Positions 31,480-36,031 of a stretch of 64,000 bases of DNA are shown here, in pieces (the stretch's first letter is position 1; each line of letters starts with the position of its first letter). Under the pieces are notes generated by a model that worked only from the letters and a program-made list of their open reading frames with translations, ran no database searches and was not told the DNA's origin. The stretch covers positions 241,964 to 305,963 of the forward strand of contig CAVONF010000005.1 in the NCBI GenBank assembly GCA_963697275.1, written 5' to 3'. The translations under genes were made by a program, and so were the position numbers. Source of the DNA: an uncultured Chloroflexia bacterium (GTDB lineage: Bacteria > Chloroflexota > Limnocylindria > Limnocylindrales > CSP1-4).

Positions 31480-32886
31480 ATGAGTGACCAGACCGGCGGG
31501 ACCACCCGCACCGAGACCGATTCCATGGGCGCCGTCGAGGTCCCGGCCGACCGCTACTGGGGTGCCCAGACGCAGCGCTCGTTGCACCACTTCGCCATCG
31601 GTGATCCCCGAGCCGAGCGGATGCCCATCGAGATCGTCCACGCCATGGGCCTGCTCAAGCTGGCCTGTGCCCAGGTGAACCTGGCTGCGGGCCGCCTCCC
31701 CGGCGATATCGGTCCGCTCATCATCCGGGCTGCCGAGGAGGTCACGGGCGGGACGCTGGACGAGCATTTCCCGCTGTACATCTGGCAGACGGGCTCCGGC
31801 ACCCAGACCAACATGAACGCCAACGAGGTCATCTCGAACCGGGCCATCGAGCTGGCCGGCGGCGCCCTGGGCAGCAAGAAGCCGGTGCACCCCAACGACC
31901 ACGTCAACATGGCGCAGTCGTCCAACGACACCTTCCCTACCGCCATGCACATCGCCATCGCCTCGCTCGTGCAGGGCAGCCTGCTGCCCTCGGTCACACG
32001 CCTGCGTGATGCGCTGGCGGGGCGTGCCCGCGAGTTCGACGACATCGTCAAGATCGGGCGGACGCACCTGCAGGACGCGGTGCCCTTGACGCTGGGTCAG
32101 GAGTTCAGCGGCTACGTGGCGCAGCTGGATGCCGGCATCGAGCGCCTGCACGCCGTCCAGCCGGGTCTCTACGAGCTGGCCATCGGCGGCACGGCCGTGG
32201 GCACCGGCCTGAACGCACCGGCCGGCTTCGGCGAGGCGGTCGCGGCCGGCATCGCCGACCTGTCCGGACTGCCGTTCGTGAGTGCCCCCAACAAGTTCGC
32301 GGCGCTGGCGGCACACGACGCGGTCGTCTTCGCCAGCGGCGCGCTGGCCACGCTGGCCGCGAGCCTCACCAAGATCGCCAATGACCTGCGCTGGCTGGCC
32401 AGCGGTCCGCGCTCCGGCCTCGGTGAGCTGTCGCTCCCGGAGAACGAACCGGGTTCGTCGATCATGCCCGGCAAGGTGAACCCCACGCAGGCCGAGGCCA
32501 TGACCATGGTCGCGGCACAGGTCTACGGCAATGACGCCGCTGTGAAGTTCGCCGGCTCGCAGGGCAACTTCGAGCTCAACGTCTACAAGCCGGTCCTGGC
32601 CGCCAACGTCATCCGCTCGACCCGACTTCTGGCCGACGCCTGCGACAGCTTCCGCGAATTCGCGGTGGAGGGGCTGACGGTAAACCGCGAACGCATCGCC
32701 GAGTTGGTGGCCCGCTCGCTCATGCTGGTCACGGCGCTCAGTCCCAGGATCGGCTATGACCGCGCCGCCGAAGTGGCCAAGAAGGCCCATCACGACGGCT
32801 CCACACTCAAGGAGGCCGCCCTGGCCCTGGGGTACGTCAGTGCCGACGAGTTCGACGAGCTGGTGCGCCCGGAGCGCATGGTCTAG
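31480..32886 (+). CDS. fumC: Class II fumarate hydratase
   Basis: [39 protein letters not shown]. Confidence 0.97.
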
Positions 32887-32945
32887 GTCCAGGGCCGGCG
32901 GTGCGCCTTGGGGTCCGTCCGGCCTGAGGCCACTCGACCCCCCTG

Positions 32946-33100
32946 TGCCTGGCAGTCACGTGATCGACCGGATCGTCGGTCAGGTGCCGCCCACATGACT
33001 GCAGCGCACACTGTTGGTGTGGCGGCACGATCCCTGTTCCTGGCACGCACATCTGGTGCGATCCCGGGCCAGGGCACGCCGGTCATGTGACTGGTACGCA
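32946..33100. repeat. REP/BIME-like intergenic element, copy 2
   Basis: TGCCTGGCAGTCACGTGA ... TCATGTGACTGGTACGCA, 155 bp, with internal copies ending at 33008 and starting at 33037. Confidence 0.7.
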
Positions 33101-33316
33101 CGCGAGGCTTCTCAGGATGCCGGTCCCGGGCGCCACTGCTGAGACTCGCGGGCGCAGCGAGGTCGAAACGCCGGGACCAGGCCGGTACCGCGACGATGGC
33201 TCGTCCTGCTGGAGGCCAGCGGATGGGGACTGTCTCAAGGCCCGATCTCCTGGTGTCACGCGGTGCCGGCGGGCGGCTGTCGGGCGGTGCCATCCTGACA
33301 GGTCCCCGGAATCGAG

Positions 33317-33484
33317 GCGACCCCGCCGAAACGGGGTCGCTTTAACTGTCCCGGCTTGACCAGAAGTGAACTCCTGATCGTCTGCCACGTCGCAAGGGCA
33401 TCTATGACGCCGGCTTCACCGGCTACCCTAACCCAACCTACCCATGACCTTGCGCCTAGGTCAGTAGTGCTGTCGAGCAGCACG
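33317..33484 (-). ncRNA. Candidate structured small RNA (about 170 nt), family unknown
   Basis: TTGAGT-N18-TACTAT promoter (33520-33491), five consecutive hairpins, a G-rich linker, and a terminal 9-bp GC hairpin (33317-33340). Confidence 0.6.
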
Positions 33485-33632
33485 CGCCAGATAGTAGCCG
33501 CACTGCAGCCTGTAACTCAACCCCTATATGCACGCTGCATGGTTGAAGATTTCGTAACATTCGGGAATCGCCGCCCCGCCCCCTCGAGGCCGTGGACTCG
33601 GCGTGCTGGTGACGTGGCGCGATCCGTCCCGC

Positions 33633-34337
33633 TCAGCCGGCCACGCGCAGTGCTTCGGCGAGGTCGATGCCGCCCGTGAAGAGGACCTCGCCCAGGATCA
33701 CGCCCCGCACGCCGGCATCGCGCAGCTCCCTGAGCCCATCGATGCGGCTGACGCCACCGGCGACCAGGATCTCGGCGTCGAGTCCGCTGGCGAGTCCGGG
33801 GATGACGGCAGCCGCACCATCGGCGGGCAGATGCGAGAGGACGAAGCGCCGCACTCCCGCCGCGTTCAGTTCGAGGACGAGTCCGGCGAGCGTGGGCTGG
33901 CGCCGGTGTCGCCACGGGTAGCCACGCAGGCTCTCCGGACGGGCGTCGAGCCCGACAGCCAGCCAGTCGCGGCCGATGCGCAGGCAGTCAGCCAACCGGA
34001 CGTGGTCCTCGACCACCGCCCACAGGGGCATCACCACACGGGTCGCGCCGGCTGCGAAGGCGATCTCGATCTGCTCCGGTCCATCGACCCCACCGGCCAG
34101 CTGCAGCGGCTTGGCGACCGCGCGCGCGACCGCGCCGATGGCCTCGAGATTGGCCGGGCTGCCCTGCCGTGCTCCATCGAGATCGACCAGGTGGATGGCC
34201 GGTGCGCCTTGGGCCACGAGAGACTCGGCGATAGCGGCCGGCCGGTCCGTCGGTGTCCCCGCCCCGGTCGATGCTCCCGGCCACCACACCAGCCGGGAGC
34301 GTCCGGCCTGGATGTCCAGGCTGGGGATGACCTGCAT
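33633..34337 (-). CDS. Divergent HisA/HisF-family TIM-barrel protein
   Basis: VIPSLDI..G, IHLVDLDGA, LQLAGGV, VGLDAR, VAGGV....L..L...GV.GVILGE.LF. Confidence 0.8.
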   Translation of the reverse strand: MQVIPSLDIQAGRSRLVWWPGASTGAGTPTDRPAAIAESLVAQGAPAIHLVDLDGARQGSPANLEAIGAVARAVAKPLQLAGGVDGPEQIEIAFAAGATRVVMPLWAVVEDHVRLADCLRIGRDWLAVGLDARPESLRGYPWRHRRQPTLAGLVLELNAAGVRRFVLSHLPADGAAAVIPGLASGLDAEILVAGGVSRIDGLRELRDAGVRGVILGEVLFTGGIDLAEALRVAG

Positions 34338-36031
34338 CAGCGACCGCTACCGGACCCGGGCCGGGTGGCCCCGCCGCCCTCGCCGGCAAGGAGTCGGCGG
34401 TGGAACGAGACCGGCAGGCTGCCCGAATAGAGCAGGGCATCGTGGAAACCCTTCAGCGAGAACGCCGCGCCATGGCGGGCCCGCTCAGCGTCGCGCAAGC
34501 GAAGCAGCAGCACCTTGCCGAGCAGGTACGAGAGGTTGTAGCTGGGCGTCTGCGTATAGCGGTGCACCTCTGCCTGCGCCACCGGCCGCTCGAAGCGGGT
34601 GTGCTCGACCAGGAAGTCCACGGCCTCGTCGACGCCGATCTCGCCCCGATGGAGGCGGATGTCGAGGACGATCCGGGCGGCGCGCCAGATGGCGTCGGTG
34701 GCCACGATGACGCGTCGGGCGGGTGTGTCCTCGAAGCCCTGTTCGAGCATCATCTGCTCGCAGTACATGGCCCAGCCTTCGTGGAACTCCGGCGCGTCCG
34801 TGAGCAGCCGAGCCGGCGTCGGCGAGGCCAGCGCGGCCGAGAACTGAAGGTGATGGCCCGGGTAGGCCTCGTGGACGCTGGTGTTCACGATGGATGACCA
34901 GTTGTGCTCCAGCATCGCGCGCCGGTCGCCGTCCACCGAGGGCGTGACGATGTAGACACCCCGGATGGGCCGGTCGAACGCGGCTGGCTCGAAGTAGGCC
35001 GCCAACGGGACCAGGCTGCGCATGTGCACCGGCGTGGGCAGCACCTCGATGACGTCGTCCGCGGGCAGGGTCGCCAGGTCGTGCTCCGCGATGAAGCTCC
35101 GCGCCCGCAGCATGGCGTCGCGGTAGCCGGCCAGGGCGGCCTCGAAGTCGGTCGGGCCAGCGGCCTTGACGCGGTCCACCACGTCAGCTTCGCTGAGACC
35201 CGGGTCGATGGCCCGCCCGGCCTCCCGCCGGTATCGATGCATGGCTTCGAGCTGCTCCCAGCCGATGGCCAGGATGGCCCCACTGTCGAGGCCGTCGAGC
35301 GCGCGCAGGCCGATGAGCTGGTCGAAGGCCTCGCCCCCGAGGGCGAAGTCGTCGCTGGCGCCATCGAGCGTCGAGCCGACCCAGGTCGCGTAGTCAGCGA
35401 GCCCGTGGCGGGCTTCGCGCGCCGCCTTCTCGAGACGGGTCAGCGCAGCACTCCCGGCCCCCCAGTGCCGCTGTGCCGCGGTCACGATCTCCTCGATGAG
35501 CCTGGGCAGATCGCCGGCGGCGCGGATCTCCAGCTCGTTCCAGAGGCGCACCGGGCGGCTCCCGAGGCGATCGCGCGCTTGCCGCAGCGCCGTGGGCACG
35601 GCCTCCAGCCGGAGCGTCAGGGATTCGAGCCGTTGGTCGAGGGGTGCGAAATCGCGCGCCAGCAGCAGGAAGAGGGCGTCGCCGATCTCATGAACGGCCG
35701 AGGCACGGCGTTGCCAGCCGCGGATGACGTCCGCTTCGAAATGCCGCAGCCGAGCGCCGTGGAGAGCCACGTCCCGCTCGAAGCGCGACGCCTCCGACAG
35801 GGTCGTCGGAGCGACGAGTTCGAGGTCGCTGATGAAGCGGGCTTCGGCGGCCATGTCGGCTTCCATGGCCGCCCGTGAGAGATCGGCCAGCCGACCGTCG
35901 TAGGCGTGGACGCCCAGGTAGGTGGCGTGGCTCGGCCACGTCTCCATGAGGGCATCGAAGCGCGACCGGATGAGTGCCTCGAGCCGTCCGTCGGCTTCGA
36001 CCGTGCTCGCGGACGCCTGGTCCTCGTTCAT
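34337..36031 (-). CDS. DUF885 family protein
   Basis: ATYLG.H.YD, HEAYPGHHLQ, EGWAMYCE, RAAR..LD..LH, RYTQTP..NLSY.LG. Confidence 0.9.
   Translation of the reverse strand: MNEDQASASTVEADGRLEALIRSRFDALMETWPSHATYLGVHAYDGRLADLSRAAMEADMAAEARFISDLELVAPTTLSEASRFERDVALHGARLRHFEADVIRGWQRRASAVHEIGDALFLLLARDFAPLDQRLESLTLRLEAVPTALRQARDRLGSRPVRLWNELEIRAAGDLPRLIEEIVTAAQRHWGAGSAALTRLEKAAREARHGLADYATWVGSTLDGASDDFALGGEAFDQLIGLRALDGLDSGAILAIGWEQLEAMHRYRREAGRAIDPGLSEADVVDRVKAAGPTDFEAALAGYRDAMLRARSFIAEHDLATLPADDVIEVLPTPVHMRSLVPLAAYFEPAAFDRPIRGVYIVTPSVDGDRRAMLEHNWSSIVNTSVHEAYPGHHLQFSAALASPTPARLLTDAPEFHEGWAMYCEQMMLEQGFEDTPARRVIVATDAIWRAARIVLDIRLHRGEIGVDEAVDFLVEHTRFERPVAQAEVHRYTQTPSYNLSYLLGKVLLLRLRDAERARHGAAFSLKGFHDALLYSGSLPVSFHRRLLAGEGGGATRPGSGSGR

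Follow-up and report, generated by a model that had tools for sequence, protein, structure and literature searches.

A stand-alone structured RNA gene with an invariant G-rich loop in Candidatus Limnocylindria (Chloroflexota)

The 64,000-nucleotide (nt) stretch of DNA analyzed here (the window), which derives from an uncultured Chloroflexia bacterium, carries on its minus strand, at about 33483-33306, an RNA gene of roughly 175 nt that is bounded by a -35/-10 promoter and a hairpin terminator. The gene lies between the convergent genes fumC, which ends at 32886 on the plus strand, and a hisA-like His_biosynth gene, which ends at 33633 on the minus strand, as was proposed in an earlier note made from the letters of the window alone. 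The G+C content is 0.56-0.63 across 33300-33600 as compared to ~0.70 in the flanks, and the low-G+C patch, the hairpins, and the G-rich tract described in that note are all present where it placed them. A 181-nt stretch folds with -80.4 kcal/mol (z = -3.0), which none of 200 shuffled sequences equaled. In a similarity search of the window's own genome, which is 62.6% complete, the element occurred once and was otherwise met only by short matches at chance level. We have very little doubt that an RNA gene exists at this locus and regard it as a stand-alone, previously undescribed structured non-coding RNA (ncRNA) gene with its own promoter and terminator. The initial proposal of an unannotated stand-alone RNA is thereby upheld by the limits of sequence conservation, covariation of the helices, conserved promoter boxes, and contigs from RNA libraries. 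The parts of the gene, with helices numbered P0 to P4, are as follows.

33520-33515, minus strand: -35-like box TTGAGT, seen in the sequence, with a TTG at the same spacing in homologues.
33496-33491, minus strand: -10 box TACTAT (TANNNT type), seen in the sequence, aligned across the genus and kept in homologues.
33484-33306, minus strand: inferred transcript of ~175-179 nt, based on the conserved block, the span of the covariance model, and the RNA-library contigs.
33483-33467, minus strand: P0, the 5' hairpin GUGCUG/CAGCAC; 6 of 6 pairs changed on both sides among 79 sequences.
33465-33458, minus strand: 5' strand of P1, ACUGACCU, pairing with 33352-33345 and closing a three-way junction.
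33454-33444, minus strand: 5' strand of P2, CGCAAGG-U-CAU, pairing with 33401-33391.
33443-33424, minus strand: G-rich loop strand GGGUAGGUUGGGUUAGGGUA; every G invariant in 32 diverse sequences.
33423-33409, minus strand: P3, the short clamp hairpin GCCGG-UGAAG-CCGGC; 100% of cells paired, 4 of 5 pairs compensated.
33408-33402, minus strand: short loop strand GUCAUAG (consensus GUSAWAG) opposite the G-rich strand; near-invariant in three families.
33401-33391, minus strand: 3' strand of P2, AUG-C-CCUUGCG, with the same support as the 5' strand.
33379-33358, minus strand: P4, a variable peripheral hairpin GAUCAGGAG-UUCA-CUUCUGGUC; 8 of 9 pairs changed on both sides.
33352-33345, minus strand: 3' strand of P1, GGGACAGU, part of the invariant GCCGGGACAG.
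33340-33308, minus strand: intrinsic-type terminator, a G+C-rich hairpin of 9-10 bp, GCGACCCCG/CGGGGUCGC (33340-33317), with the tail CUCGAUUCC.

The element is widespread among relatives of the source organism. BLAST searches with a 301-nt query recovered it from 59 of 61 related genomes, including 34 of 36 of the same genus and all 24 of a second family, whose genomes measure 1.0-1.4 Mb. The conserved block extends from ~33560 to ~33300 in 22 of the 29 loci of the genus, and in the seven more distant ones it begins at 33483 (five loci) or 33500 (two loci) and ends at 33268-33319. Its limits thus fall at or slightly upstream of the first base of P0 and shortly behind the terminator hairpin. 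Conservation is highest on the element and ends at the predicted start and terminator of the RNA. It is also better conserved than the end of the neighboring coding gene.

A covariance model of the RNA (R1) identified a single copy in each of 141 of the 151 genomes of the order (100/108 in family f1 and 40/42 in family f2). Across the class, R1 matched 96 of 151 genomes, among them 47 of 50 in family f4, which represents a second order, or 45 of 48 if two f4 genomes flagged as unpublished (G246, G264) are left aside; families f3 (0/49) and f5 (0/1) had no match, nor had any of 136 genomes from other Chloroflexota classes. A model restricted to the core (R2) gave the same distribution, including its absence from f3 (0/49). 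A single R2 hit outside the class (28.5 bits in G284) was judged to be due to chance; by eye, it covers the end of an open reading frame (ORF) followed by A+T-rich DNA. The bare G-motif was found outside the class in 1 of 355 genomes, and a reversed control pattern in 3 of 401. An exact-motif scan across one genome per species (185,579 in all) returned at least 120 stretches, and all 80 of the 80 matches listed fit the model. The listed loci are titled Chloroflexi or Chloroflexota, Candidatus Limnocylindria or Limnocylindrales, and judging by the record titles all carriers among them are metagenome-assembled. Five loci with the RNA (L143, L145, L148, L155, and L168) instead bear the titles Steroidobacteraceae, Polarisedimenticolia, Anaerolineaceae, or Sulfomarinibacteraceae. 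Four of these share kilobases of flanking similarity with Chloroflexi or Limnocylindria loci, and L168 only ~600-700 nt including the RNA; a further locus labeled merely 'bacterium' (L132) is likewise similar to the same loci over kilobases. Either the deviating titles or the binning of these contigs look wrong. On the evidence of these genome searches, the RNA family appears so far to be confined to Candidatus Limnocylindria (Chloroflexota).

The predicted fold of P0, P1, the P2-P3 rod, and P4 is shown by comparative analysis. In a MAFFT alignment of the full RNA (32 sequences), 90.2% of the cells were paired and the covariation score was 0.290 versus 0.108 for the best slid control, with none of 500 shuffles matching either the paired fraction or the score. 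The 68-nt core of the same number of sequences performed even better (94.8% of cells paired; covariation 0.332 versus 0.065), as 8 of its 15 pairs had changed on both sides and none of 500 shuffles matched any measure. An alignment of 79 distinct loci from the motif scan, which leans towards the structure because it was fitted to the model, yielded 90.5% paired cells, a covariation score of 0.437 versus 0.081 in the slid control, and changes on both sides in 36 of 47 pairs. The 11 top-ranking mutual-information pairs all are annotated pairs. With 25 G-U versus 2 A-C pairs, the core fits transcription from the minus strand.

The individual helices differ in how they vary between families. P0 is present in f1 and f4 and absent from f2. 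In P1, ACUG-A-CCU pairs with GGG-A-CAGU; the ACUG..CAGU of the window's genus is replaced by GCUG..CAGC in other genera and by AGCUGUUC/GAYCGGCU in f2, 4 of its 8 pairs have changed on both sides among the 79 sequences, and the helix also appears in the minimum free energy (MFE) structure of the single sequence. P2 has 6 of 10 pairs changed on both sides, is paired in 95.9% of cells of the core alignment, and occurs in one genus as a fully compensated 9-bp version, CGUGAUCAU/AUGAUCACG. P3 changes from GCCGG/CCGGC to GUCGC/GCGAC in f2 and to AGCGG/CCGCU with a GAAA loop in f4, its loops by family being UGAAG or UGCAG, CUUUAG, and GAAA. P4 is shorter in f2, where it has a conserved 10-nt loop, and it is lost in f4, where P2 is extended into a long rod. 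As a side observation, the 10-nt P4 loop of f2 loci L031-L048, UGACUUGUUC, repeats the CUUGUUC found near the 5' end of the same RNA.

The expectation that the element would be conserved and covary thus held. Six hairpins had been read from the window, of which four (GUGCUG/CAGCAC, GCCGG/CCGGC, GAUCAGGAG/CUUCUGGUC, and the terminator) are kept with compensatory change. The remaining two, TGACCT/AGGTCA and TGCC/GGCA, are present in the window sequence only and are not kept; their bases instead form the long-range helices P1 and P2. The same alignments bear on the proposal that the conserved sequence is a small protein gene, i.e., an overlapping 75-aa ORF at 33256-33483 or a shorter one. Although this GTG-start ORF is open in the window, it exceeds the conserved block by 50 nt and its frame is not preserved: relatives of the same genus differ by 1-nt indels, the linker in the loop varies by 1-3 nt among families, and the lengths of 132 homologous RNAs fall into all modulo-3 classes (60, 43, and 29). 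Substitutions track base pairing and not codons, and Pfam has no match for this or the other small ORFs overlapping the element. We give next to no credence to a coding function.

The promoter, TTGAGT-N18-TACTAT, was found on the minus strand where it had been proposed, with a spacer of 18 nt and seven bases between TACTAT and the P0 hairpin. Among 124 distinct upstream regions of homologues, a TANNNT stands directly upstream of the RNA in 116, in 109 of which it ends 0-5 nt ahead of model position 1, and a TTG is located 17-19 nt upstream of the TANNNT in 103. Families f2 and f4 have near-consensus promoter boxes. A simple consensus scan of the element called neither promoters nor terminators (0 each), the former because TTGAGT/TACTAT match the consensus at only 8 of 12 positions and the latter because the tail behind the hairpin contains too few U in the window's genome. 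The terminator hairpin is nevertheless among the best-supported elements, with changes on both sides at each of its 9 pairs and pairing in 99.7% of cells in the 79 model-fitted sequences. The caveat raised initially, namely that this hairpin may mainly end plus-strand transcription, is not sustained by the relatives, whose tails are richer in U on the RNA strand; the predicted terminator belongs to the RNA itself. Transcription would hence start near 33484/33483 and stop near 33310 at this terminator.

Contigs from four RNA libraries of four different studies fall on 33299-33503 alone within 33150-33750. None of the four runs has contig cover on 33150-33296 or 33507-33750, where, however, contigs cannot prove absence. 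One run (X15) contains short contigs with a word depth of 20-847 that are confined to 33371-33466. The high-depth contigs of this run are joined to sequencing adapter ~5 nt beyond 33466, inside the 3' strand of P0, and this contig end at 33466-33471 might stem from processing of the 5' end or be a library-preparation artefact. The contigs indicate, but do not map, expression of the RNA. A minus-strand transcript of ~170 nt had been predicted; the contigs agree with it in covering the element, while strand and ends are features that they do not provide.

Gene order is partly conserved upstream of the RNA. A same-strand cyclophilin gene precedes it at 13 of 15 loci compared, often with DUF885 and His_biosynth genes beyond, and the order DUF885, (His_biosynth), one or two cyclophilins, RNA is kept across three families (loci L054-L113; window 33633-36031). 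The window's genus has no cyclophilin gene at that place; an f2 cyclophilin used as query (E <= 1e-20) matched the window's genome only at G000 C5:532606-533055. Relatives of the cyclophilin are found in every family but f5 (0/1), with lower identity in f3. Five f3 genomes encode both DUF885 paralogues without the downstream cyclophilin and without the full G-loop motif.

This synteny could indicate that the RNA is a cis element of the upstream operon, either the 3' untranslated region or a bidirectional terminator of the cyclophilin or hisA-like genes, and one RNA-library contig that passes the predicted start as well as the T-run on the plus side of the hairpin in the window would agree with such a role. 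Yet the upstream stop codon is separated from the RNA by a conserved -35/-10 pair, conservation among the more distant loci of the genus sets in where the RNA is predicted to start, and the RNA stays the same in the window and in one other genus although another gene stands upstream there. Furthermore, ~130 nt of covarying structure stand ahead of the terminator, and no plus-strand gene ends near the hairpin, the fumC stop codon being 430 nt away. We therefore consider a cis element of the upstream operon hardly credible. Downstream genes are unrelated among the 15 loci. The next identified gene is convergent at eight of them and also in the window, and at four a same-strand gene follows the RNA. 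The lack of a conserved downstream gene, in the window and at these loci, confirms the earlier judgment that the element is not a riboswitch leader.

The RNA also has no counterpart among known families. With Rfam 15 at the gathering threshold, only two tRNAs were found in the whole window. Permissive scans of the element and of its f2 and f4 versions reached 17-22 bits at best, versus thresholds of 35-95, and these scores rest mainly on the terminator hairpin. As expected from the initial comparison with known architectures, no family came to half its threshold. ARAGORN and Rfam detected no tRNA, transfer-messenger RNA (tmRNA), signal recognition particle (SRP) RNA, or RNase P RNA at the locus, and the latter three were each located elsewhere in all five genomes tested. 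A literature search, supplementary files aside, found no report of such an RNA in Limnocylindria or Chloroflexota, and a search with motif strings met only unrelated primers and oligonucleotides. We thus place the RNA as a new family, outside Rfam 15, among the orphan structured RNAs of bacteria, a known category. In this category, the raiA motif RNA and OLE RNA are stand-alone structured ncRNAs with Rfam families. Like them, the present RNA is single-copy and lineage-wide, has its own promoter and terminator but no conserved downstream gene, and has helices that covary around invariant loop or junction nucleotides. Unlike them, it occurs in Limnocylindria, a taxon known only through metagenome-assembled genomes, and has a clamped G-rich asymmetric loop as its core, and it shares no sequence or model similarity with either.

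The only universal housekeeping RNA that is unaccounted for is 6S RNA, whose model RF00013 matched neither the locus nor any of the five genomes or of 151 class genomes. This silence means little, as the model was positive in only 4-5 of 14 control genomes, and the class has either a very divergent 6S RNA or none. The gene could accordingly encode a divergent 6S-like RNA of the lineage that would bind the RNA polymerase holoenzyme, and its size, single copy, strong promoter, near-universality, and apparently strong expression would fit. 6S RNA binds that enzyme and serves as a template for product RNAs; its fold has paired 5' and 3' ends and a large two-sided central bubble between long flanking helices. 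The RNA described here, in contrast, has no closing stem but a 5' hairpin, followed by a three-way junction (f1) or a rod (f4); its loop is asymmetric (20-22 versus 7 nt), the apical helix beyond it has only 5-6 bp and a small loop, and the transcript has its own terminator. A complementary distribution of 6S RNA and the new RNA was considered but is not seen, RF00013 giving no match in any of the five families and thus not in f3 either, where the RNA is missing; given the insensitive model, this comparison says little. A 6S-like identity is, in our view, very unlikely.

The most conserved part of the RNA is the asymmetric internal loop clamped by P2 and P3, in which a G-rich strand of 20-22 nt faces a 7-nt strand. 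All G of GGGUAGG-N(1-3)-GGGUNAGGGUAG are invariant across the 32 sequences, and variation in this strand is limited to the linker of 1-3 nt behind GGGUAGG and to one base in GGGUNAGGG. Both loop strands are essentially invariant across the class, whereas their surroundings vary or are lost. The location of the tract with its four G-runs outside Watson-Crick helices is borne out at 33443-33424, and the tract is unpaired in the centroid fold. A tertiary partner of the loop was not visible by mutual information, the loop columns being invariant.

Three roles had been suggested for the G-rich tract, i.e., a pairing seed, a protein-binding site, or a G-quadruplex. As a seed, the exposed tract would make the RNA a base-pairing regulatory small RNA directed at C/U-rich mRNA sites, which would suit a stand-alone promoter-to-terminator transcript with a long conserved stretch outside Watson-Crick helices. 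Words complementary to the 24-nt tract are, however, not enriched. Counted as exact Watson-Crick matches, without G-U pairs, in the window's incomplete genome, they were fewer than for shuffled tracts at k=9 (25 versus 141), k=10 (6 versus 30), and k=11 (2 versus 5.5) and about equal at k=12 (1 versus 0.9). Hfq (PF17209) was not found in any of 81 class genomes searched, the control being positive in 5 of 14 genomes. Identity over ~40 nt on both strands of a loop across two orders would also be unusual for a seed. A structured module is favored over a seed because both loop strands are invariant and P3 is kept only as a helix, its loops differing by family. We regard a seed-pairing function as improbable. 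A 12-nt identity, AUGGGUAGGUUG, was noticed between the G-rich loop and the 5' end of a tRNA-like gene (G000 C1:121729-121740) that by eye has a long variable arm; 0.9 such 12-mers occur by chance according to shuffles.

It is tempting to propose, albeit tentatively, that the RNA acts in trans and that its folded core docks a conserved protein. Briefly, a sigma-70-type promoter would drive synthesis of the minus-strand RNA, which would end at its own hairpin terminator. The asymmetric loop might then fold into a specific non-canonical module on which a conserved partner in the cell docks, most likely a protein, and the RNA could function as a component of a ribonucleoprotein or as a sequestering regulator. 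Neither linear seed pairing nor control of a downstream gene would be involved. A protein partner is favored because the clamp helices and the periphery have drifted around two loop strands that stay fixed, and because the gene survives genome streamlining and has no regulated gene behind it.

Several findings weigh against this proposal or parts of it. A small-molecule aptamer would look just the same, with an invariant internal loop flanked by covarying helices. RRM proteins were not found in any of 81 class genomes searched (0/81), and no gene for an RNA-binding protein was found next to the RNA. The cyclophilin gene, the sole conserved neighbor, is missing beside the RNA in the window, and cyclophilins are also present in f3, which lacks the RNA, so that there is no clean co-occurrence signal. 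Regarding the structure, two of the five measures of the full-RNA MAFFT alignment were not beyond the shuffles (both-side changes 88/500; further pair types 86/500), and a three-pair GGC/GCC helix at the base of P4 is unsupported in the 79-sequence alignment. The RNA-library contigs give no strand, ends, or level, and we infer start, end, and strand of the transcript from other evidence; two low-depth contigs extend 23-30 nt past the predicted ends into sequence unlike the window.

The main alternative, though less probable, is that the stand-alone RNA contains a ligand- or ion-sensing aptamer, in which the G-rich loop together with P2 and P3 would bind a small molecule or cation, possibly around a G-quartet core, and the bound versus free state would alter action in trans or transcription read-through. 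Riboswitch-containing small RNAs that act in trans do exist. The anatomy resembles that of riboswitch aptamers, with invariant loop strands between covarying helices, a variable and dispensable peripheral hairpin, and a terminator directly behind, and at 4 of 15 loci a same-strand gene follows the RNA. Unlike in riboswitches, there is no conserved regulated gene, with the next identified gene converging in the window and at 8 of 15 loci; no Rfam riboswitch model or recognized aptamer class matches, and no alternative antiterminator pairing was seen by eye.

The quartet core has evidence on both sides as well. The tract fits a G-quadruplex pattern, GGG-UA-GG-N(1-3)-GGG-UNA-GGG, with four runs of at least two G (GGG, GG, GGG, GGG), one linker that varies between 1 and 3 nt, and another that varies in identity. 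There is a structural analogy, and only that, to laboratory-selected aptamers in which a G-quadruplex is stacked between two helices, as here four G-runs of one strand with one linker of variable length lie between A-form helices. The RNA differs from these selected aptamers in being a natural gene with only two G in its second run, which would allow at most two tiers. Moreover, a plain quadruplex would have no need for the observed invariance of the linkers UA and U-A and of the 7-nt opposite strand, and with the gquad option of ViennaRNA the MFE structures of four representatives and of the core contained none and were the same as without it. The energy model therefore does not back the G-quadruplex suggested initially.

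A trans-acting RNA with a protein-docking core remains the reading that we prefer, if tentatively. Limnocylindria abound in soils, groundwater, and lakes, and we know of nothing published on their RNA biology. In two orders, roughly nine in ten genomes have one copy of the RNA, among them genomes reduced to ~1.1 Mb, and it is kept even in the 1-Mb streamlined freshwater genomes of the Limnocylindrus type. An unchanged core, a near-consensus promoter, and near-universality form a pattern that is usual for RNAs with a basic cellular role. A bolder possibility, which we consider doubtful, is that the RNA represents a housekeeping RNA class of its own. The invariant loop would then be a natural tertiary module of a new kind, with G-quartets or otherwise, for sensing a cation or metabolite, or else belong to the RNA subunit of a ribonucleoprotein new to bacteria. 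If true, a natural quadruplex-type or ligand-binding module or a new ribonucleoprotein part would be of wider interest. Being compact, the ~68-nt core motif can be synthesized and probed in vitro with no culture of the host, and a new Rfam family would improve the annotation of Limnocylindria genomes.

Two minor observations concern the DNA behind the RNA. In the window, a gap of ~420 nt (32887-33305) separates the stop codon of fumC from the RNA terminator; it has a coding-like G+C content of ~0.70 and contains several ORFs of 90-136 aa without Pfam matches, and its DNA is not conserved in most relatives of the genus. In some f2 genomes (loci L031 and L032), the RNA seems to stand amid genes for stable RNAs, as what by eye resembles the beginning of a tRNA gene follows the RNA terminator within ~25 nt.

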